A program made the position numbers and the translations under genes. A stretch of 35,227 nt of DNA from a virus (taxonomy: Duplodnaviria > Heunggongvirae > Uroviricota > Caudoviricetes), in IMG/VR virus record IMGVR_UViG_2778261451_000005; one strand, given 5' to 3'. A model generated the notes under the pieces. It searched no databases. It saw only the letters and a list, made by a program, of their open reading frames with translations, and had not been told where the DNA came from. Below are positions 3,150 to 28,713 of this stretch, in pieces. The stretch's first letter is position 1. Each line of letters opens with the position of its first letter.

Positions 3150-3374
3150 ATGCATACAGTTTCTGAAAATCAGTGCGGTAAATACGCATTACTGCTGCAA
3201 CAGGCCAGAACCGAAGCACAGGCCGACGCTGCGACGCGCTTTTCTTCTCATCTTGACGCCATGATTCGCCACATCACAAAGGCGGAGTTATCCCGCGTGG
3301 AGATAGTCGAGCTGCTCAGTCAGGAGTCGGAAAAATTTCACAACATCGGATTGTCTCGCGGGGAGGTGCTTTGA
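3150..3374 (+). CDS. Early hypothetical protein (P2 orf80 position)
   Basis: 74 aa, ATG with GGAGAAAG SD; conserved position in P2 early operon. Confidence 0.65.
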
Positions 3375-7170: not shown

Positions 7171-7334
7171 CGTTAGTTGACATTCATATTTTTACTGCGT
7201 TGGTGCTGTTTTTTGACGGTTGAAAGGAGTTATCTCGGAGAGCTAAAGCTAACAACTTACAAATATTCAAAAGTAAGCTTCCTGTTGCTAACATAAGGTC
7301 GATTTTTTATGTGGATGATGCAAAAAGGATAGCT

Positions 7335-8066
7335 ATGGATACTATAATCGCTTTTCTATCACTCGCTTTTTTTGTTGCTTTTTTCATCGGGTTAATCAAG
7401 CCATCACTGGTGCGAATGCCAAGCCGCAAACGTGCAAGTGCGGTTTATCTCGGAGGAGGTTTTGTATTGAGCATAATTGGTTCAATACTCTATCCAACAG
7501 AAAAAAGCCAGCCAGTTGCTAAAACTGAAACATCAACCGTTGTAGAACACCAAGTCCAAAAAACATTCGAATATGGTGAAAAAACACTCAAGGAATATCG
7601 GAGCGAGCCAAAGAAAACTCGACACGATATTGTGAATAGTTACATTGACTTTAAGAAAGTTCCAGTCACCGCATCAGATGCATTTTATGCCTGCATGAGT
7701 GAGTATACATTTACCAAAGATGATGAGTTGAAACTCGGTGATGTTCTTGGGTGGTGCTTTAATGATTATGAAAATGACCCGAGTTCACTAAATAATAAAA
7801 TCAATCTTGATACATTTCAGAGTAATTTTAGTGGTTGGGATGGTTCTTATCGTCCATTGGAAAAACTAATTAAAGATAATATGAACGATGATTCATCTTA
7901 TAAACATGTATCAACGGTATATCATTTAGTTTTGAATAAAGACCCGCACGCCATTGTGAAAACGACGTTTCGCGGCACTAATGCTTATGGTGGCATGGTC
8001 AAACAGACTGTAGCAGCGCGAGTTGACGTGCGAACGGGTGAGATCGATTCAATACTCGACAATTAA
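7335..8066 (+). CDS. Cargo gene 1: membrane-anchored protein of unknown function (two N-terminal TM helices plus ~190-aa domain)
   Basis: ATG at 7335 with AAGGAT SD (ORF-track start 7311 is GTG); hydrophobic segments TIIAFLSLAFFVAFFIGLI and AVYLGGGFVLSIIGSILY separated by a basic loop; AT-rich; occupies the P2 tin/old position. Confidence 0.7.
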   Translation: MDTIIAFLSLAFFVAFFIGLIKPSLVRMPSRKRASAVYLGGGFVLSIIGSILYPTEKSQPVAKTETSTVVEHQVQKTFEYGEKTLKEYRSEPKKTRHDIVNSYIDFKKVPVTASDAFYACMSEYTFTKDDELKLGDVLGWCFNDYENDPSSLNNKINLDTFQSNFSGWDGSYRPLEKLIKDNMNDDSSYKHVSTVYHLVLNKDPHAIVKTTFRGTNAYGGMVKQTVAARVDVRTGEIDSILDN

Positions 8067-8085: not shown

Positions 8086-8143
8086 GTCAGTGATGAAACT
8101 TGCTTTTAGTCTTGGCGGGGTTGAGCAATGAGTCTTGCAAGGT
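8086..8143. repeat. Copy 2 of the ~55-bp repeated element, directly upstream of cargo gene 2
   Basis: cagtgatgaaacttgcttttagtcttggcggggttgagcaatgagtcttgcaagg aligns with 7115..7170. Confidence 0.7.
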
Positions 8144-8149
8144 GTTAGC

Positions 8150-8806
8150 ATGCGTAGAATGGAAGCTGCTTGGACGTGGGGTATTCATATGAATTTAAAA
8201 ATTTTCGGCATAATTGTCCTTTCTGCTTTGATGTTCGTTTTAGGTTTTTTTCTCGGTGGTTTTAATTGGGAATGGGCTGATAAGAATTATGCAGGTGAGG
8301 TGGCGTTGTGGAGTATGTTAGGAGGGTGGTTATCCGCAATTGCAACTCTGTTTGCCGTGTTGGTTTCATTATATATGGCGTATCAAGCTACTCAGAATGA
8401 GATTGAAAAAATCAGGGTTACTCATGGAGTAAGTATGAGTGTCACTCATGACAATGAGTTAAGTTGTAATCTCATTATTCAGAACTTGAGAAATATGAAA
8501 GTGAATATTACTGGTGTTTTTTTGTCTCTAGGTAAATCATCAGGTAAGTACTCTTTGGATAAAGTAATTGACAATCGTAATATAACGCTTTCATATAAAG
8601 GTGAAACAGAAAAGGTACAATTTGTAATCCATTCTGGGTATATTTGGTGGTCAATGTATAAATTATTCGATATGGATAAGAACATAGGTTTTGAAAAGGG
8701 TAAGATCTTTATAACAACCAACCTCAATACATATGAATTTGATTTGCCAAAAGAATATTTAAGAGCTTTTGAGAAAGCTTATTCGGAGTATCAGACAAAA
8801 AAATAA
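8150..8806 (+). CDS. Cargo gene 2: membrane-anchored protein of unknown function (two N-terminal TM helices plus ~130-aa domain)
   Basis: ATG at 8150 preceded by AAGGTG (ORF-track start 8135 is TTG); hydrophobic segments IFGIIVLSALMFVLGFFLGGF and LWSMLGGWLSAIATLFAVLVSLYMAY; strongly AT-rich. Confidence 0.7.
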   Translation: MRRMEAAWTWGIHMNLKIFGIIVLSALMFVLGFFLGGFNWEWADKNYAGEVALWSMLGGWLSAIATLFAVLVSLYMAYQATQNEIEKIRVTHGVSMSVTHDNELSCNLIIQNLRNMKVNITGVFLSLGKSSGKYSLDKVIDNRNITLSYKGETEKVQFVIHSGYIWWSMYKLFDMDKNIGFEKGKIFITTNLNTYEFDLPKEYLRAFEKAYSEYQTKK

Positions 8807-15652: not shown

Positions 15653-15934
15653 ATGACAGCAGAAGAAAAAAGCGTCCTGTCGCTTTTCATGATTGGGGTG
15701 CTGATTGTTGTCGGCAAGGTGCTTGCCGGTGGTGAACCCATCACCCCGCGTCTGTTTATCGGGCGCATGTTGCTCGGTGGTTTTGTCTCGATGGTTGCCG
15801 GTGTTGTTCTGGTGCAGTTTCCTGACCTGTCACTGCCTGCGGTGTGCGGCATCGGCTCCATGCTGGGTATCGCCGGTTATCAGGTGATTGAGATTGCCAT
15901 TCAGCGCCGCTTTAAGGGCAGGGGGAAACAGTAA
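15653..15934 (+). CDS. Y: Holin Y
   Basis: 93 aa with hydrophobic TM segments; first gene of lysis cassette as in P2. Confidence 0.9.
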   Translation: MTAEEKSVLSLFMIGVLIVVGKVLAGGEPITPRLFIGRMLLGGFVSMVAGVVLVQFPDLSLPAVCGIGSMLGIAGYQVIEIAIQRRFKGRGKQ

Positions 15935-18375: not shown

Positions 18376-19161
18376 TTATGAGTGATTTTTATTTGATGCT
18401 TTGTATTCTAAAACCTTCTTATTGGCGTAAAAGAATTTTGTATATGACAGGAATATAACCAGACCTGAAGTGAAATAGACGAGGGATAGTATTAATAATG
18501 CTTTTTTGTGACTGTTATTATCTTTAATCTCCTGGCTTAACCATTCGGAGTCCTCCTCGTTTAGCTGTAAGAGCTTATTGCAGGCGATCTCAGGAAGTGT
18601 GTCTTTTATAAATACGTTTTGCAGTCTCTTGCAATCGGCAAGGCTATAAGTTTTATTAAATTCAACTGCTTTATTTTTGAAGGATAAAAGAACTTTGTCA
18701 CTATAAACATAGTACATCATGTTTTTATATGGTATGCCTATGGCATCCCTTACTATAACGGATTGTTCGTTGTGTATGTAACATGCGAGGAGAATGTAAA
18801 AAATACTGGCCAGAATTACAATTATTGTTTTAATTATGTGTGGTGGTTTTGTTATGTCACCCCAGATGCGAGTAAGGAAAAAATACGATGTTTTTAGTTT
18901 TCCATCAATCAGTCCCTGCTGTATCATTCTCACATTTTCAATGCCTGATACATTGATTCCATTAATTATTTTAAATAGTTGAATGTCGCGCCACTCGCGG
19001 TCAAGTCTTTTTAATTTTTTGTCTGAATATCCAAAATTGAAATAATGTGCAATAAGCCTCATAAGGTTACTTTTACCAAAGCTAAAAAATGCTAATACTG
19101 CAAAGCTACAAAGGAAAAAAACGATTAGCCCCCACACATTAGTCACATTATAGCTGACCAT
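18376..19161 (-). CDS. Cargo gene: 261-aa integral membrane protein of unknown function (three predicted TM helices), antisense to the tail operon
   Basis: ATG at 19161 with AAGGAGAG SD on minus strand; hydrophobic segments VWGLIVFFLCSFAVLAFFSF, IIKTIIVILASIFYILLACYI, ALLILSLVYFTSGLVIFLSY; strongly AT-rich; inserted between S and V (P2 orf30 position). Confidence 0.75.
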   Translation of the reverse strand: MVSYNVTNVWGLIVFFLCSFAVLAFFSFGKSNLMRLIAHYFNFGYSDKKLKRLDREWRDIQLFKIINGINVSGIENVRMIQQGLIDGKLKTSYFFLTRIWGDITKPPHIIKTIIVILASIFYILLACYIHNEQSVIVRDAIGIPYKNMMYYVYSDKVLLSFKNKAVEFNKTYSLADCKRLQNVFIKDTLPEIACNKLLQLNEEDSEWLSQEIKDNNSHKKALLILSLVYFTSGLVIFLSYTKFFYANKKVLEYKASNKNHS

Positions 19162-21670: not shown

Positions 21671-23776
21671 ATGAGCACAAAATTCAAAACCGTTATCACC
21701 ACTGCCGGTGCAGCAAAGCTGGCAGCGGCAACCGCACCGGGAGGGCGGAAGGTCAACATTACCACGATGGCCGTCGGGGATGGCGGTGGTAAATTGCCTG
21801 TCCCGGATGCCGGACAGACCGGGCTTATCCATGAAGTCTGGCGACATGCGCTGAACAAAATCACCCTGGACAAACGAAACAGTAATTATATTATCGCAGA
21901 GCTGGTTATTCCGCCGGAGGTGGGCGGTTTCTGGATGCGTGAGCTTGGCCTGTACGATGATGCGGGAACGCTAATTGCCGTGGCGAACATGGCTGAAAGT
22001 TATAAACCCGCTCTTGCCGAAGGCTCAGGGCGTTCGCAGACCTGCCGCATGGTCATCATCGTCAGCAGTGTGGCCTCAGTGGAGCTGACCATTGACACCA
22101 CAACGGTGATGGCAACGCAGGATTACGTTGATGACAAAATTGCAGAGCATGAACAGTCACGACGTCACCCGGACGCCTCGCTGACCGCAAAAGGTTTTAC
22201 TCAGTTAAGCAGTGCAACCAACAGCGCGTCTGAAACACTGGCTGCAACGCCGAAAGCGGTAAAGGCCGCGTATGACCTTGCTAACGGGAAATATACTGCG
22301 CAGGATGCCACCACAGCGCGAAAAGGTCTTGTCCAACTCAGTAGTGCCACCAACAGCACGTCTGAAACGCTCGCCGCAACACCAAAAGCGGTAAAGGCCG
22401 CGTATGACCTTGCTAACGGGAAATACACTGCACAGGACGCCACCACAGCGCGAAAAGGTCTTGTTCAGCTCAGTAGCGCCACCAACAGCGATTCTGAAAC
22501 GCTGGCCGCAACGCCAAAGGCGGTAAAGGTCGCGTATGACCTTGCTAACGGGAAATACACTGCACAGGACGCCACCACAGCGAGAAAAGGCCTTGTCCAG
22601 CTCAGTAGCGCCACCAACAGTGATTCTGAAACGCTTGCGGCAACGCCAAAGGCGGTAAAGGTCGCGTATGACCTTGCTAACGGGAAATACACTGCACAGG
22701 ATGCCACCACAGCGCGAAAAGGGCTTGTTCAGCTCAGTAGCGCCACCAACAGTGATTCTGAAACACTGGCCGCAACACCAAAAGCGGTGAAGTCTGCCTA
22801 TGACAATGCTGAAAAACGTCTTCAGAAAGATCAGAACGGTGCGGATATTCCTGATAAAAGATTATTCCTGCGCAATATTGGAGCAACAAATTCAACAACC
22901 ATGTCTTTTAGTGGTGGTACAGGATGGTTCAGGCTGGCAACTGTAACCATGCCCCAGGCCAGTTCCGTGGTTTACATAAGCCTGATTGGTGGTGCCGGAT
23001 ATAATGTTAACTCCCCTATGCAGGCTGGTATATCTGAACTTGTTCTTCGTGCGGGAAATGGAAATCCAAAAGGTCTTACTGGTGCGTTATGGCGACGGAC
23101 ATCGGTTGGATTTACTAATTTTGCATGGGTGAATACATCCGGTGATACCTATGATGTTTATGTTGAAATAGGTAATTACGCCACAGGTGTTAATATTCAG
23201 TGGGATTATACCAGTAACGCCAGCGTAACGATTCATACATCACCAACTTATACAGCGAATAAACCAACAGGCCTGACAGATGGAACTGTATATGTAATTT
23301 ACAGTTCGTACATTAAACCGACTGCTGCTGATGTTGGGGCGTTATCATTATCTGGTGGTCAATTGAATGGTGCTCTGGGTATAGGAACATCCAGTGCTCT
23401 TGGCGGTAATTCGATTGTTTTGGGTGATAATGACACGGGCTTTAAACAAAATGGTGATGGTAATCTGGATGTTTATGCTAATAGCGTCCATGTTATGCGC
23501 TTTGTCTCCGGAAGCGTTCAAAGTAATAAAACCATAAATATTACGGGGCGTGTTAATCCCTCGGATTACGGTAACTTTGATTCCCGCTATGTGAGAGATG
23601 TCAGACTTGGCACACGTGTTGTCCAGACCATGCAGAAAGGGGTGATGTATGAGAAAGCAGGGCACGTAATTACCGGGCTTGGTATTGTCGGTGAAGTCGA
23701 TGGTGATGACCCCGCAGTATTCAGACCAATACAAAAATACATCAATGGCACATGGTATAACGTCGCACAGGTGTAA
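21671..23776 (+). CDS. H: Tail fiber protein H with expanded internal repeats
   Basis: 701 aa; conserved N-terminus; about five tandem 44-aa repeats (…QLSSATNSxSETLAATPKAVKxAYDLANGKYTAQDATTARKG…); AT-richer C-terminal tip. Confidence 0.9.
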   Translation: MSTKFKTVITTAGAAKLAAATAPGGRKVNITTMAVGDGGGKLPVPDAGQTGLIHEVWRHALNKITLDKRNSNYIIAELVIPPEVGGFWMRELGLYDDAGTLIAVANMAESYKPALAEGSGRSQTCRMVIIVSSVASVELTIDTTTVMATQDYVDDKIAEHEQSRRHPDASLTAKGFTQLSSATNSASETLAATPKAVKAAYDLANGKYTAQDATTARKGLVQLSSATNSTSETLAATPKAVKAAYDLANGKYTAQDATTARKGLVQLSSATNSDSETLAATPKAVKVAYDLANGKYTAQDATTARKGLVQLSSATNSDSETLAATPKAVKVAYDLANGKYTAQDATTARKGLVQLSSATNSDSETLAATPKAVKSAYDNAEKRLQKDQNGADIPDKRLFLRNIGATNSTTMSFSGGTGWFRLATVTMPQASSVVYISLIGGAGYNVNSPMQAGISELVLRAGNGNPKGLTGALWRRTSVGFTNFAWVNTSGDTYDVYVEIGNYATGVNIQWDYTSNASVTIHTSPTYTANKPTGLTDGTVYVIYSSYIKPTAADVGALSLSGGQLNGALGIGTSSALGGNSIVLGDNDTGFKQNGDGNLDVYANSVHVMRFVSGSVQSNKTINITGRVNPSDYGNFDSRYVRDVRLGTRVVQTMQKGVMYEKAGHVITGLGIVGEVDGDDPAVFRPIQKYINGTWYNVAQV
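22189..22800 (+). repeat. About 4.6 tandem copies of a 132-bp coding repeat inside H
   Basis: Period 132 bp, nearly identical units; explains the spurious antisense ORFs 22201..22446 and 22465..22710. Confidence 0.85.
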
Positions 23777-23779
23777 TTT

Positions 23780-24307
23780 ATGCAGCATTTAAAAAATATT
23801 ACTGCGGGTAATCCAAAAACTGTTGCCCAATATCAACTGACAAAAAATTTTGATGTTATCTGGTTATGGTCCGAAGAGGGAAAAAACTGGTATGAGGAAG
23901 TAAGTAATTTTCAGGAAGACACGATAAAGATTGTTTACGATGAGAATAATATAATTGTCGGCATCACCAGAGATGCTTCAACGCTCAACCCTGAAGGTTT
24001 TAGCGTTGTCGAGGTTCCTGATATTACCGCCAACCGACGTGCTGATGACTCAGGTAAATGGATGTTTAAGGATGGTGCCGTGATTAAGCGGATTTATACG
24101 GCAGACGAACAGCTGCAACTGGCGGAATTACAGAAGTCAGCTTTGCTTTCCGAAGCTGAAACTATCATTCAGCCACTGGAACGCTCTGTCAGACTGAATA
24201 TGGCAACAGATGAGGAGCGTAGCCGACTGGAAGCATGGGAACGCTACAGTGTTCTGGTCAGCCGTGTGGATCCTGCAAATCCTGAATGGCCGGAAATGCC
24301 GCAATAA
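23780..24307 (+). CDS. G: Tail fiber assembly chaperone G
   Basis: 175 aa; follows H as in P2. Confidence 0.88.
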
Positions 24308-24341: not shown

Positions 24342-24383
24342 TAGCACAGAGTAAAGCCTAATCTGACAGTCTGCTCTGTGCTA
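24342..24383. repeat. Hairpin (10-bp stem tagcacagag / ctctgtgcta, 22-nt loop) carrying the left inverted-repeat site
   Basis: Read directly; no U-tract, so not a canonical terminator. Confidence 0.55.
24360..24375. repeat. Site L: 16-bp element aatctgacagtctgct, perfect inverted repeat of 26793..26808
   Basis: Exact reverse-complement match; candidate recombinase recognition site. Confidence 0.7.
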
Positions 24384-24485
24384 GGAGCGGACTGACCTGC
24401 TTCCCGATGATTAATACACAGCTATGCTAGTAATGTCCGTAGATCGCTGTGTGTTGCATCCATCGGTTGAACTCACAGTCCAAAC

Positions 24486-24506
24486 CAGACTGTCAGCTTT
24501 GATTAG
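24486..24506. repeat. Site M: cagactgtcagctttgattag, direct copy of site R (26795..26814) and inverted relative to site L
   Basis: 20 of 21 positions match site R, with one indel. Confidence 0.65.
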
Positions 24507-24659
24507 ATTCTACCTACTCAACCTGTCAGATAAGGTCTGAGCTAATACATCTAATATATGGCTTCGTGCAGGGGACGGCTATCGCGAACGTTAGGCCAGG
24601 TATCTGAATACGCACATTCACTTGGTTGTACTTCTTGCACTGATCTGCTATCCCGCACA

Positions 24660-24696
24660 GCTATTTATAGGTAATCTTCAGTGTATAATCTGCCAA
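24660..24696 (+). promoter_or_regulatory. Putative sigma70 promoter for the 280-aa cargo gene
   Basis: Perfect TATAAT at 24684..24689 with a weak -35; AGGAG SD at 24717..24721 before ATG 24728. Confidence 0.45.
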
Positions 24697-24727
24697 CTTA
24701 TGGAAGCTTGTACAACAGGAGAAATAT

Positions 24728-25570
24728 ATGAAAAAAGAATTGTTTGGACGTTGCCCGTTTGATCTTGACGAAGATGTAAAAAAAATAGCCGCGATAAATA
24801 AATATATCCATGCAAAATTTGAGGAGCATAAAAATAAAATAGACAACCTAAAGGGTGTGGAACAAAAATTGATGGTCTTACAGTACTTTAATGTACTGAA
24901 TGAACTTAGTAATCAGGCTATCTCTTCTTTGAATATAGGAGCCTTTTCAGCATCGGAAGTATTAGCTAGGGTTATAATAGAACAGGCTGCCAATCAATTT
25001 TATATAGCAATAGATGATGGCGAAAATGCACAAGCATTACTCAAGGCTAGTAAGAAATTAGTTCATAGTAATGGAAAACGGTGGCTGGAGTGTTTAAAAT
25101 CCAAAGGAATGACTAATCCAGCAGCAAATGAAAGGATTCGCATGGGAAAAGAACTAACTGATCTATTTAATAGATTGTGGCCAAATACACCTGAATATCC
25201 AGGAACCAGAAAACTTTTTGAATTAATTGGCTGGGAAACACACTATCATGCCCATTACGTTCCCCTTTGTGATTCAATACATACATTCTCTGATGATATG
25301 GTAAATATAGTATCTCTATATAATGCAATCCAAAGTGATGAAAATACTGCTATCGAATTCATTCTTGCAGTTAAACAAGAAAATAAACGGCTGGCAATTT
25401 ATAATTTTGTAATTGCTACGGCCCTTCGGTGTGAGGCCTTAGTAAATGTATTTAACTCTTTAGGTTATCAGGATATTATAACAGAAATGACACCAACAAT
25501 AGATACAGTCAACCAGACTATAATTCGATATGATGATTTTGATCATTCCAGAATTGATGATTGTCAATAA
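24728..25570 (+). CDS. Cargo gene: 280-aa soluble protein of unknown function (candidate defence/exclusion effector)
   Basis: ATG with AGGAG SD; AT-rich; no TM segments or motifs I recognise; in the P2 Z/fun position. Confidence 0.75.
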   Translation: MKKELFGRCPFDLDEDVKKIAAINKYIHAKFEEHKNKIDNLKGVEQKLMVLQYFNVLNELSNQAISSLNIGAFSASEVLARVIIEQAANQFYIAIDDGENAQALLKASKKLVHSNGKRWLECLKSKGMTNPAANERIRMGKELTDLFNRLWPNTPEYPGTRKLFELIGWETHYHAHYVPLCDSIHTFSDDMVNIVSLYNAIQSDENTAIEFILAVKQENKRLAIYNFVIATALRCEALVNVFNSLGYQDIITEMTPTIDTVNQTIIRYDDFDHSRIDDCQ

Positions 25571-25676
25571 TTAATTGACAGAATACGTACATGCGCAACA
25601 ACTAGTGATAGTTGACTTATTTTCGCTCTTGAGAGACAACCATACTCAAATCTCCCACATTGCAGGAGATTTGAAT

Positions 25677-26261
25677 ATGAAAACGTCACCGTGGAATAAA
25701 GACCGTACCATCGGTCAAAAAAGGCCACTTCAGATATCTCATATCTGGGGGATCCGGATTAGACTTGAGTTGGAAGGTAAAACACGCGATCTAGCTCTGT
25801 TCAACATGGCTTTGGACACTAAGCTACGGGGCTGTGATTTGGTCAAACTCAAAGTATCAGATGCTGCATATGGCAGTTCTGTCTCAAGCAGAGCAACGGT
25901 GTTGCAACAGAAAACCGGCAGCCCTGTCCAATTTGAGATAACCAAAGGGACAAGGGAAGCGGTTACTGCATTGATAAAGCTCGGCAACTGGCATAGTAAA
26001 GGCTTCCTGTTCCGCTCTCGGGTCGGAACTAACCACCATATATCAACCCGGCAATACAACCGAATTTTTCATGGGTGGGTAGAAAAGCTTGGTCTCGAAG
26101 ATTCGCTGTACAGCACACATTCCATGAGAAGAACAAAACCTTACTTAATCTACAAGAAAACCAAGAGTCTCCGGGTGATCCAACTTCTGTTGGGCCATAA
26201 GAAACTGGAAAGCACAGTCCGTTATTTGGGCATTGAAGTCGATATAGAAGGTCTCTTTTAA
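25677..26261 (+). CDS. Small tyrosine recombinase, catalytic domain only (FimB/FimE-like size)
   Basis: 194 aa from ATG at 25677 with AGGAG SD (ORF-track start 25575 rejected); catalytic signature R (…TKLRGCDL…), HxxR (…THSMRRT…), LLGHxxxxxTxxY (…LLGHKKLESTVRY…); lacks an N-terminal core-binding domain. Confidence 0.75.
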   Translation: MKTSPWNKDRTIGQKRPLQISHIWGIRIRLELEGKTRDLALFNMALDTKLRGCDLVKLKVSDAAYGSSVSSRATVLQQKTGSPVQFEITKGTREAVTALIKLGNWHSKGFLFRSRVGTNHHISTRQYNRIFHGWVEKLGLEDSLYSTHSMRRTKPYLIYKKTKSLRVIQLLLGHKKLESTVRYLGIEVDIEGLF

Positions 26262-26283
26262 GTTATGGGGGCTGATTTTATAT

Positions 26284-26661
26284 TCAATAGCGTATGCTCA
26301 TCGAAGAAATAAACTCATAAAATGTAAAGACAGCCAGCAAAAACATACAGATAAAGATAAGGGAAATAGCACACTTAACTAAGGGCTGAACCCCCCGAGG
26401 TGTTCCCCATGGTTTAGACATTTGGGTTATAACCCAAATAAATAAGGCCACAAAACAGCAAACACCAGCCAATCCGAGCAGAGATATTATGACAACTCCA
26501 AACAGATTTCCAACATCTAGTTTATCTGTTTTTGCAACTAGGGTTAACAAACCAGCAATAATAGTTGCAATCGATATTCCCGCAATGGTTGTGAGATCGG
26601 CGATAACAGCCAGTTTTTCTTTAGTATTTCCTTGAGTAAAAACCTCTAAAATTGATTTCAT
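26284..26661 (-). CDS. Cargo gene: 125-aa membrane protein (three predicted TM helices), convergent with the recombinase
   Basis: ATG at 26661 with AGGTGG SD; TATAAT-like -10 elements upstream on minus strand; hydrophobic segments throughout; AT-rich. Confidence 0.65.
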   Translation of the reverse strand: MKSILEVFTQGNTKEKLAVIADLTTIAGISIATIIAGLLTLVAKTDKLDVGNLFGVVIISLLGLAGVCCFVALFIWVITQMSKPWGTPRGVQPLVKCAISLIFICMFLLAVFTFYEFISSMSIRY

Positions 26662-26792
26662 GGAAATAACCACCTACTATCGATTATATTCAGGAGCTTT
26701 TTATTATAACGATATCAGATAGATAAGGACATTGTAATATTTTGGATGATTTAAACTTGCTTTTGTAACTCTAATGTCCACTTTTCGCTCAA

Positions 26793-26814
26793 AGCAGACT
26801 GTCAGATTTGATAG
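26793..26814. repeat. Site R: agcagactgtcagatttgatag (inverted partner of site L, direct partner of site M)
   Basis: Exact 16-bp reverse-complement match to 24360..24375; lies between the island and FI. Confidence 0.7.
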
Positions 26815-26867
26815 CATTTGGGCTATGTAAATTGTCAGGCGGAAAATGAGTGAGTACAAATCAGGAC

Positions 26868-26895
26868 AGGCGGGCGAATTGCCCGCCTTTTCTTT
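26868..26895 (+). terminator. Rho-independent terminator upstream of FI
   Basis: aggcgggc / gcccgcct stem, 5-nt loop, followed by TTTTCTTT. Confidence 0.7.
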
Positions 26896-26991
26896 ATCTG
26901 TTGTTTCATCCACTGACCAGTCAGGTCAAATAGCGTCTCATGCACTGCCCAACAGAAAATAGTTGCACCCATTAACCACGGAGTTAAACGG
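26896..26991 (+). promoter_or_regulatory. Region expected to contain late promoter P_F
   Basis: Position upstream of FI as in P2; specific Ogr dyad not confidently located. Confidence 0.4.
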
Positions 26992-28182
26992 ATGAGTGAC
27001 TATCATCATGGCGTGCAGGTGCTGGAGATTAACGACGGCACCCGCGTCATTTCCACCGTATCCACTGCCATTGTCGGCATGGTCTGCACGGCCAGCGATG
27101 CGGATGCGGAAACCTTCCCCCTCAATAAACCGGTGCTGATTACCAATGTGCAAAGCGCAATTGCAAAGGCCGGTAAAAAAGGCACGCTGGCGGCATCGTT
27201 GCAGGCCATCGCTGACCAGTCAAAACCGGTCACCGTTGTCGTGCGCGTGGAAGACGGCACCGGTGATGACGAGGAAACGAAACTCGCGCAGACCGTTTTC
27301 AATATCATCGGCACCACCGACGAAAACGGTCAGTACACCGGACTAAAAGCCCTGCTGGCGGCGGAGTCGGTAACCGGTGTTAAACCGCGTATTCTCGGTG
27401 TGCCGGGACTGGATACCAAAGAGGTGGCTGTTGCACTGGCATCCGTCTGTCAGAAGCTGCGCGCTTTCGGATATATCAGCGCATGGGGCTGTAAGACCAT
27501 TTCCGAGGTGAAAGCCTACCGCCAGAATTTCAGCCAGCGTGAGCTGATGGTCATCTGGCCGGATTTCCTCGCATGGGATACGGTCACCAGTACCACCGCC
27601 ACCGCGTATGCCACCGCCCGTGCGCTGGGTCTGCGCGCTAAAATCGACCAGGAGCAGGGCTGGCATAAAACGCTGTCCAACGTCGGGGTAAACGGTGTTA
27701 CCGGCATCAGCGCGTCCGTATTCTGGGATTTGCAGGAGTCCGGCACCGATGCTGACCTGCTTAACGAGTCAGGCGTCACAACGCTGATTCGCCGTGACGG
27801 TTTCCGCTTCTGGGGTAACCGTACCTGCTCTGATGACCCGCTGTTCCTCTTTGAAAACTACACCCGCACCGCGCAGGTGCTGGCCGACACGATGGCTGAG
27901 GCGCACATGTGGGCGGTGGACAAGCCCATCACCGCAACGCTGATTCGCGACATCGTTGACGGCATCAATGCCAAATTCCGAGAGCTGAAAACAAACGGCT
28001 ATATCGTGGATGCGACCTGCTGGTTCAGCGAAGAATCCAACGATGCGGAAACCCTCAAGGCCGGAAAACTGTATATCGACTACGACTATACCCCGGTGCC
28101 TCCTCTCGAAAACCTGACCCTGCGCCAGCGTATTACCGATAAATACCTGGCAAATCTGGTCACCTCGGTTAACAGCAATTAA
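26992..28182 (+). CDS. FI: Tail sheath protein FI
   Basis: 396 aa; P2 size and order. Confidence 0.93.
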   Translation: MSDYHHGVQVLEINDGTRVISTVSTAIVGMVCTASDADAETFPLNKPVLITNVQSAIAKAGKKGTLAASLQAIADQSKPVTVVVRVEDGTGDDEETKLAQTVFNIIGTTDENGQYTGLKALLAAESVTGVKPRILGVPGLDTKEVAVALASVCQKLRAFGYISAWGCKTISEVKAYRQNFSQRELMVIWPDFLAWDTVTSTTATAYATARALGLRAKIDQEQGWHKTLSNVGVNGVTGISASVFWDLQESGTDADLLNESGVTTLIRRDGFRFWGNRTCSDDPLFLFENYTRTAQVLADTMAEAHMWAVDKPITATLIRDIVDGINAKFRELKTNGYIVDATCWFSEESNDAETLKAGKLYIDYDYTPVPPLENLTLRQRITDKYLANLVTSVNSN

Positions 28183-28194
28183 GGAGCCTGACCG

Positions 28195-28713
28195 ATGGCA
28201 ATGCCGCGCAAACTCAAATACATGAATGTCTTTCTGAACGGCTACAGCTATCAGGGCGTTGCAACGTCCGTCACGCTGCCAAAACTGACCCGTAAGCTCG
28301 AAAATTATCGCGGTGCGGGGATGAACGGCAGCGCACCGGTAGACCTCGGCCTTGATGACGATGCGCTGTCAATGGAGTGGTCGCTCGGGGGTTTCCCGGA
28401 TTCGGTTATCTGGGAGCTTTACGCTGCAACCAGTGCTGATGCCGTACCGATTCGTTTTGCTGGTTCTTACCAGCGCGACGATACCGGCGAAACGGTGGCC
28501 GTCGAAGTGGTCATGCGTGGGCGTCAGAAAGAAGTCGACACCGGAGAGGGTAAACAGGGAGAGGATACCGAATCGAAACTCCCGGTGATTTGTACTTATT
28601 TCCGGCTGACGATGGACGGTAAGGAGCTGGTCGAAATCGACACCATCAACATGATTGAGAAGGTGAACGGCGTCGACCGGCTGGAGCAACACCGCCGAAA
28701 TATCGGCCTGTGA
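28195..28713 (+). CDS. FII: Tail tube protein FII
   Basis: 172 aa; follows sheath. Confidence 0.93.
   Translation: MAMPRKLKYMNVFLNGYSYQGVATSVTLPKLTRKLENYRGAGMNGSAPVDLGLDDDALSMEWSLGGFPDSVIWELYAATSADAVPIRFAGSYQRDDTGETVAVEVVMRGRQKEVDTGEGKQGEDTESKLPVICTYFRLTMDGKELVEIDTINMIEKVNGVDRLEQHRRNIGL

Follow-up and report, generated by a model that had tools for sequence, protein, structure and literature searches.

The SieA protein of phage P22 is sufficient on its own for superinfection exclusion, which it achieves by blocking DNA entry, and it carries a conserved cytoplasmic motif (PMC10883804). Phage HK97 gp15 is a small inner-membrane exclusion protein that is expressed in the prophage from a moron in the tail-gene region and blocks genome entry (PMC3594210). 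A third point of reference is fun(Z) of phage P2, a non-essential lysogenic-conversion gene that blocks phage T5. Here we describe a gene encoding a 125-amino-acid (aa) protein with three predicted transmembrane (TM) helices, hereafter the 3TM gene, which lies on the minus strand at positions 26284 to 26661 of a 35,227-nucleotide stretch of viral DNA (IMG/VR record IMGVR_UViG_2778261451_000005). The whole of this stretch, termed the window, is a complete P2-like (Peduovirus) prophage, and the gene sits between the tail-fibre assembly gene G and the sheath gene FI, a gap that is the classical Z/fun cargo hotspot of P2. Judged from comparisons of sequence, the 3TM gene is an autonomous 'moron', a mobile one-gene cassette, and we are highly confident of this structural part of our account (a real gene, a membrane protein and an autonomous cassette). 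Our best explanation of its function, which we put forward tentatively, is that the product is a stand-alone lysogenic-conversion membrane protein giving superinfection-exclusion-type protection against other phages.

The locus resembles each of these systems in part. SieA is a prophage-expressed inner-membrane protein with three predicted TM helices, the number also predicted here, and the layout of sieA provides a further likeness, namely the opposite strand, convergence on the last late gene and a 22-bp gap; sieA has a promoter of its own, as the 3TM gene probably does. SieA is, however, longer (162-164 aa against 125 aa) and hhalign returned a probability of only 0.2. HK97 gp15 resembles the window protein, as predicted, in being a small protein of the inner membrane whose gene forms a self-contained moron within the tail-gene region of a temperate coliphage. 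It belongs, however, to the YebO family, to which no PHROG or Pfam link of the window protein was found; and whereas the gp15 gene is embedded in the late operon, the window gene runs antisense to it, with no terminator found. The correspondence with fun(Z) is one of place, as both genes occupy the G-FI site, on the same strand and next to the pF promoter; Fun(Z) itself is an unrelated protein of 529 aa and only the flanks of the locus are common with P2. The features of the cassette are as follows.

26243 to 26799, minus strand: the mobile one-gene cassette as delimited by homology, comprising junction motif, promoter block, open reading frame (ORF) and about 40 bp of 3' sequence
26284 to 26661, minus strand: coding sequence of the 125-aa three-helix membrane protein (ORF, RefSeq, hydropathy, AlphaFold2, phrog_4155)
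26670 to 26674, minus strand: Shine-Dalgarno-like GGTGG, 8 nt upstream of the ATG, read from the sequence
26683 to 26688, minus strand: second TATAAT, 21 nt before the ATG, in E. coli copies only
26703 to 26734, minus strand: conserved upstream block CAATGTCCTTATCTATCTGATATCGT-TATAAT, that is CAATGTCCTTATCTATCTGATATCGTTATAAT, from alignment of 7 upstream regions
26708 to 26703, minus strand: distal -10 hexamer TATAAT, at the 3' end of the conserved upstream block
26776 to 26799, minus strand: junction motif GTCT-GCTTTGAGCGAAAAGTGGAC, bordering the cassette on its 5' side, in inverted repeat with 24360-24392

A mechanically produced ORF list begins this reading frame at a GTG at 26673, giving 129 aa, and the ATG gives 125 aa; conservation of the N-terminal M-K/Q-S/T-I among 32 members of the family favours the ATG. 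An identical 125-aa protein is held in RefSeq as WP_000836023.1 ('hypothetical protein') and occurs in E. coli S88 and KSC207. The protein is strongly hydrophobic, with a grand average of hydropathy (GRAVY) of 1.14 and three hydrophobic stretches at residues ~17-43, 52-80 and 94-118, and an AlphaFold2 model places helices at 13-44, 50-82 and 92-124 with a modest mean confidence (pLDDT, predicted local distance difference test) of 69.6. The gene is convergent with that for a small tyrosine recombinase, their stop codons lying at 26284 and 26261, 22 bp apart. An earlier note on this DNA, made from the sequence, had described a small hydrophobic three-TM protein on the opposite strand that is arranged convergently, and both descriptions hold, the ORF, the GRAVY value and the three predicted helices agreeing with the first and the tail-to-tail arrangement with the second. 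When the lysine plus arginine content was averaged over the 32 members, values of 3.56 for the N-terminus, 0.84 for loop 1, 2.66 for loop 2 and 1.0 for the C-terminus were obtained; by the positive-inside rule the predicted topology is thus N-terminus in and C-terminus out (N-in/C-out). This would place the conserved N-terminal motif described below and the basic loop in the cytoplasm and leave only short segments in the periplasm. The C-terminus, EFISSMSIRY, is short and nearly uncharged.

The protein matches the profile of phrog_4155, an unnamed PHROG family, along its full length (residues 1-125, E=8.3e-83), as do all 32 of the diverse relatives that we examined, and no other PHROG was matched consistently. 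Ratios of non-synonymous to synonymous substitution (dN/dS) were 0.11-0.41 in pairs with homologues from Serratia, Yersinia, Pectobacterium and Citrobacter, which on this comparison indicates that the gene is under purifying selection. From these ratios, and from the observation that family members are nearly all full-length, we reject the possibility of a chance or spurious ORF. A word-indexed search gave 21 close clusters, and all those carrying a source name were from Enterobacterales. A profile search of 1.8 billion representatives returned 56 cluster representatives, nearly all of them full-length at 112-135 aa, the exceptions being a few shorter fragments and one 183-aa protein. The family shares the N-terminal motif G-x-x-K/R-E-K/R-L-A-v-I-A-D-l-x-S-I-x-G-V-S, and in the alignment of 32 members D22 and G28 are invariant with G11, L17 and S30 nearly so. 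The gene was found in 64 of 5426 complete E. coli genomes; GTDB representative genomes held a homologue in Pectobacterium only, and a search of plasmids gave none. No named family in Pfam or NCBIfam was matched by the window protein, or consistently by the 32 relatives, and the label 'YqjE' given by JGI to one distant member is backed by no Pfam match.

That the gene moves by itself is best seen from the limits of homology around it. In blastn comparisons these limits fall at 26243-27100 against KSC207, at 26243-26799 against SaT040 and at 26245-26795 against a Serratia chromosome, and because they are equally sharp in the three backgrounds we take the unit to be ~557 bp (~0.56 kb). In E. coli KSC207 the identical protein is the sole cargo between G and FI, while a copy with 94% identity adjoins a DUF6650 gene in SaT040 and in a number of contigs from IMG/VR. 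In E. coli O158:H23 strain CFIAFB20140388 the gene lies in a lambdoid prophage, 0.6 kb from the defence gene PD-T7-1 (PADLOC 8.2e-159). P2 prophages of two arrangements, one lambdoid prophage and a Serratia chromosome all carry the ~0.56-kb unit, which has thus spread horizontally as an independent element. Close homologues were found in a Pectobacterium integrative element (ICE), in Serratia beside a gene for an Sll1717-family P-loop ATPase, and in a Yersinia island. Further ones were seen not far from a type VI retron reverse transcriptase at the other P2 hotspot, which extends from gpA to the portal gene (49% identity), between icd and int in a lambdoid prophage (60%), as the leading cassette of an integron-like array that has attC-like sites and adjoins a degraded integrase fragment (42%), in a Providencia lambdoid prophage directly after the Q antiterminator gene, where the late genes start, and, in a distant homologue, among TIR-CHASE2, PIN, Abi_alpha and MmeI genes. 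An all-against-all BLAST of the ORFs within 4 kb at 14 loci showed that the 3TM protein alone recurs, with no shared neighbour.

Some of these contexts deserve fuller description. Downstream of the 3TM gene in KSC207-type P2 prophages there is a decayed C-terminal remnant of an Sll1717-family ATPase gene, carrying an in-frame stop (loci L023 ~3150-3330, L014 782-934 and L017 6415-6600); the intact Serratia ATPase matches NF047389 at 1.5e-61 and, weakly, the anti-phage model DS41_1. The remnant shows that the cassette was captured from a Serratia-type chromosomal context and was kept while the ATPase gene decayed. In the window, as the alignments read, the remnant is replaced at 26243 by a module comprising a DUF5677 gene and the recombinase gene. 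At the O158:H23 locus (L022, 4160-5811) the 3TM gene adjoins a truncated GIY-YIG gene and a full-length PD-T7-1 homologue. The array with the 42%-identical homologue (L030, 6668-14438; also L031-L034) consists of co-directional small unrelated genes, among them an AadA-like nucleotidyltransferase, SLATT/DUF4231, glyoxalase and TfoX_C; its spacers are attC-like imperfect palindromes (…AAC…GTT…), a 37-aa integrase fragment lies beside hrpA, and the whole has the appearance of a sedentary chromosomal integron whose intI is degraded.

The earlier note had also credited the gene with a Shine-Dalgarno sequence and TATAAT-like elements of its own, and these are indeed present: GGTGG stands 8 nt before the ATG and there are two TATAAT hexamers, although a scan gave no full -35/-10 pair. 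The 7 upstream regions aligned came from E. coli P2-like and lambdoid prophages, Serratia, Yersinia and Pectobacterium. It can be seen that the distal -10 and ~25 nt upstream of it are nearly invariant from E. coli to Pectobacterium while the flanks diverge, that the block is better conserved across genera than the coding sequence, and that the purine-rich Shine-Dalgarno block is retained in the homologous upstream regions. The -10 and upstream block, which have no -35 match, accompany the ORF in all backgrounds. The block at 26703 to 26734 is thus probably a promoter and regulatory region that moves with the gene. As transcription of the gene runs opposite to that of the late genes, its expression in the lysogen would be possible.

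With no named family to draw on, our argument for function is one from anatomy and company. The gene stands in an AT-rich insertion (GC 0.33-0.40), is preceded by a conserved block that is probably its promoter and is directed against the late genes, the anatomy of a lysogenic-conversion gene, as in P2 fun(Z) and P22 sieA. In the mechanism that we propose, the cassette would sit in the Z/fun hotspot and be transcribed opposite to the late tail genes, its product would be a small inner-membrane protein with three helices in N-in/C-out topology and no dedicated partner, and this product would block other phages at the membrane stage of infection, much as P22 SieA, HK97 gp15 and T4 Imm each act alone. 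Since the cassette moves independently between hotspots, the 3TM protein most likely acts alone. The company kept in several contexts is that of defence, with PD-T7-1, the type VI retron reverse transcriptase, and the TIR, PIN, Abi_alpha and MmeI genes. The suggestion in the earlier note of a superinfection-exclusion role accordingly stays the best guess in so far as family members lie in defence hotspots, but the protein matches no known exclusion or defence family.

A number of observations weigh against protection from phages, or against parts of the anatomy on which we base it. PADLOC-DB v2 gave 0 matches to the window protein and only isolated ones to the 32 relatives, at E>=0.005, and the annotated PHROG families gave no similarity to the window protein or, consistently, to the relatives. 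The hhalign comparison of the 32-sequence profile with P22 SieA covered 2 aligned columns and revealed no similarity, Foldseek against the PDB and BFVD returned nothing at E<0.5 (with a query model whose pLDDT is itself low), a tblastn search of 50,697 deposited phage genomes with three family members found 0 homologues, and no paper in the literature names the protein accessions. In the predicted topology the most conserved parts of the protein are cytoplasmic and only ~6-8 residues are exposed in each periplasmic segment, neither being a first expectation for a protein that meets an incoming tail tip. The argument from association is weak because the hotspots also carry toxins, immunity genes and other genes. 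In strain MSI001 the gene is interrupted by an IS5 element, so that it is dispensable. As regards a self-contained unit, the consensus scan detected no complete promoter, only a good -10 with no recognisable -35, a scan of the minus strand found no terminator-like site 3' of the stop codon, and the 3' region, which abuts the recombinase gene, gave no stronger folding than its shuffled versions (z=0.79).

The element is of an ordinary kind, a moron in a known hotspot, and its family is an uncharacterised one. A bolder claim would be that phrog_4155 is a new family of single-protein, membrane-embedded exclusion determinants, spread as a ~0.56-kb promoter-gene cassette among the hotspots of P2-like and lambdoid prophages, ICEs, integron arrays and defence islands, and joined at the short hairpin-like GTCCGCT-N10-AGCGGAC; we regard this as possible but rather doubtful. 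If it were true, the presence of the motif at cargo borders of many phage genomes would hint at a shared cassette exchange serving prophage defence hotspots. Prophage hotspots are the main source of new anti-phage genes, and the small unannotated genes within them are mostly missed by detection tools; the 3TM family is invisible to PADLOC, Pfam and NCBIfam. The cloning target is well defined, at 557 bp with no partner gene needed, and if phage exclusion proves to be its function the protein would offer a minimal, 125-residue model for a block to DNA entry at the inner membrane. Even with an immunity function or some other role, the results correct the reading of the three genes of the island as one system.

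A different explanation is that the protein is an orphan immunity protein, carried by the prophage, that would protect the host by neutralising, inside the membrane, a pore-forming or membrane-targeting toxin of competitors, such as an E1/Ia-type colicin, a microcin, or a membrane effector of contact-dependent inhibition (CDI) or of a type VI secretion system (T6SS). Immunity proteins to E1/Ia-type colicins are of ~100-115 aa with three helices in N-in/C-out topology, and are encoded by a solitary convergent gene with its own promoter, so that in size, in predicted helix number and topology, and in its solitary convergent gene the window protein resembles them. Minimal periplasmic exposure would suit an action by intramembrane helix-helix contacts, and genes resembling DUF8093 toxins (with phospholipase or endonuclease domains) lie a few kb away at the Serratia and Yersinia loci. 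Against this, a search at E<=1 gave none of the 32 members a match to the colicin or microcin immunity families of Pfam, no colicin gene is nearby and no toxin gene adjacent at any of the 14 loci, the best-conserved residues are cytoplasmic rather than intramembrane, and the company in three contexts is of known phage-defence genes. We consider orphan immunity unlikely.

We give similarly little credence to a self-contained membrane-lesion protein, holin-like or acting by abortive infection, which would stay inert until infection and then collapse the membrane potential, killing the cell before progeny are made; the earlier note had offered a membrane-disrupting effector as its other suggestion. 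Small multi-helix membrane proteins are the usual effectors of abortive infection (Rousset et al., PMC9122126), single family members have weak matches to a PHROG holin family (E 0.16) and to the PycTM and SLATT models (E 0.005-0.011), and the Providencia homologue is placed directly after the Q antiterminator gene. These weak matches are not common to family members, however, and no sensor partner recurs at the 14 loci; moreover a lesion protein made constitutively without an inhibitor would be costly. Class I holins of the lambda S type are also small phage proteins with three TM helices, but they are N-out/C-in with a charged C-terminal tail and are encoded beside the endolysin gene in the late operon, whereas the window protein has the opposite predicted topology, a short and nearly uncharged tail, and a gene antisense to the late genes. 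The prophage has a holin of its own, Y, followed by an ORF in the position of endolysin K, and the presence of this separate holin (15653-15934) led us to reject the 3TM protein as the lysis holin of the prophage.

The product might alternatively be a lysogenic-conversion protein with a role in host physiology, be it stress tolerance, modulation of transport or some property of the envelope. The Z/fun hotspot is 'mixed purpose' (bioRxiv 10.1101/2024.10.15.618418), the conserved cytoplasmic motif could dock a host protein, and PADLOC found no defence signature. The spread of the gene is narrow and patchy, however, as judged from the 64 E. coli genomes and 21 close clusters given above, and such patchiness, together with sites in an integron, an ICE, prophages and a defence island, is typical of conflict genes; a physiological role is in our view improbable.

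The remaining explanation, that the 3TM protein is one component of a multi-gene system with DUF5677, the recombinase or both, including inversion-switched expression, is already largely refuted and very improbable indeed: the genes are adjacent in 36 E. coli genomes, and inverted repeats flank an island with a recombinase gene inside, but other P2 prophages and further sites have the identical protein with neither neighbour, homology breaks sharply at 26243 between the modules, the repeats form part of the hotspot backbone irrespective of cargo, and the inverted junction was found in none of the genomes searched. The features concerned are listed here.

24393 to 26242, plus strand: neighbouring module, outside the cassette, between the P2 backbone and the 3TM cassette
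24728 to 25570, plus strand: DUF5677 gene, 280 aa (Pfam DUF5677 5e-10; phrog_4167)
~25677 (RefSeq start) to 26261, plus strand: small tyrosine recombinase gene, 194 aa (Phage_integrase 1.5e-17)
26868 to 26888, plus strand: terminator-like GC hairpin and T-run, from a scan; 9 bp, 7 G-C pairs

The earlier note had placed the 3TM gene in the same island as the 280-aa protein. This tie does not stand, as the identical gene is the sole cargo in KSC207, keeps company elsewhere with unrelated neighbours and has no recurrent partner in the 14 loci; with the break at 26243, these are also our grounds for rejecting a three-gene system. The DUF5677-recombinase module is missing from KSC207, SaT040 and L014, all of which have the 3TM gene, and the whole island of DUF5677, recombinase and 3TM genes is present in 36 of the 5426 complete E. 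coli genomes, against 64 for the 3TM gene. The earlier note had further supposed that the island might invert. For this we constructed the junction expected after an inversion across the arms of the repeat (24360-24392 and 26776-26808), and it was found whole in 0 of the 5426 genomes, although consensus assemblies could hide minority inversions within a culture. Among the matches listed, 20 of 20 whole-island carriers align collinearly with the window along the entire query, each of the 36 has 80% or more of the query at a single place, and the orientation of the 3TM gene was identical in every P2 context seen. We therefore reject an inversion switch.

Between G and FI the plus strand has a single terminator-like site, the strong hairpin at 26868-26888, so that late transcripts of the H-G operon would probably cross the island; by analogy with the annotation of P2, this hairpin should lie just upstream of the expected pF activator site. 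Such read-through would probably be sense for the DUF5677 and recombinase genes and antisense to the 3TM gene, and would therefore damp expression of the latter in lytic growth. In the other direction, no terminator was found behind the 3TM gene, and its own transcript would be expected to continue into the recombinase gene in antisense. The catalytic R, H-x-x-R, H and Y positions of the recombinase are apparently present when read from the sequence, and among the models of NCBIfam it comes closest to the XerA/XerC-type, integron-integrase and DNA-invertase ones, though every score falls far short of the cut-off. For DUF5677 the literature yielded a single preprint, in which the domain figures as untested or enriched, and an Rfam scan of the island gave nothing.

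The junction motif at 26776-26799 falls within the 'right inverted repeat' of the P2 Z region as annotated in P2-EC58, and the inverted repeats are a feature of the hotspot backbone that is independent of the cargo. The motif is a diverged copy of a hairpin-like GTCCGCT...AGCGGAC that is present at cargo borders elsewhere. We observed this hairpin-like motif, GTCY-GCTNTGAGCGANNAGYGGAC with the stem GTCCGCT/AGCGGAC, at the borders of cargo modules in the window (26776-26799 and 24360-24392) and in loci L021 (3994-4013, 4893-4912), L022 (3993-4012, 5835-5854), L019 (3741-3760, 4921-4940, 5866-5885) and L020 (433-452). Copies stand on both sides of DUF6650 (in a P2 prophage) and of PD-T7-1 (in a lambdoid prophage). 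Serratia has a copy upstream of its 3TM gene, and in P2 the motif separates fun(Z) from pF. On one side its flanks are drawn from a few backbone families and on the other they differ from locus to locus. An exact-pattern scan of IMG/VR found the motif in at least 120 contigs and, among the matches listed, 68 of 81 copies were not beside a P2 sheath gene. Nilsson and colleagues reportedly described the Z-region repeats in 2004, and the hairpin-like motif may be their recombination element.

The prophage genes that serve as landmarks in the window are the following.

15653 to 15934: holin Y gene (PF04550, 2.6e-42), followed by an ORF in the endolysin K position
21671 to 23776: tail fibre gene H
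23780 to 24307: tail-fibre assembly gene G (Caudo_TAP 6.7e-34)
26992 to 28182: sheath gene FI
28195 to 28713: tube gene
29190 onwards: tape-measure gene

The gap between G and FI is an AT-rich interval of ~2.5 kb with a GC content of 0.32-0.40, compared with 0.55-0.60 in the flanking late genes. Deposited P2-like phage genomes match the flanks alone, over at most 12% of the query, so that the island is an insertion relative to these relatives. Recent surveys know the Z/fun site as a hotspot of mixed purpose (bioRxiv 10.1101/2024.10.15.618418; bioRxiv 10.64898/2026.02.27.708500).

Elsewhere in the window, two plus-strand ORFs at 7311-8066 (251 aa) and 8135-8806 (223 aa) lie within the other P2 hotspot, from gpA to the portal gene, where defence genes of P2-like phages are mainly found. 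No Pfam family matches either of them at E<=0.001, and they are candidates for cargo of an unknown kind. A 261-aa ORF at 18376-19161, which has no Pfam match, is on the minus strand and so opposed to the late genes; it separates the tail-completion genes from baseplate gene V, as orf30 does in P2. Finally, the translation of the tail fibre gene H contains 4-5 near-identical tandem copies of a ~44-aa unit, …TARKGLVQLSSATNSxSETLAATPKAVKxAYDLANGKYTAQDAT….

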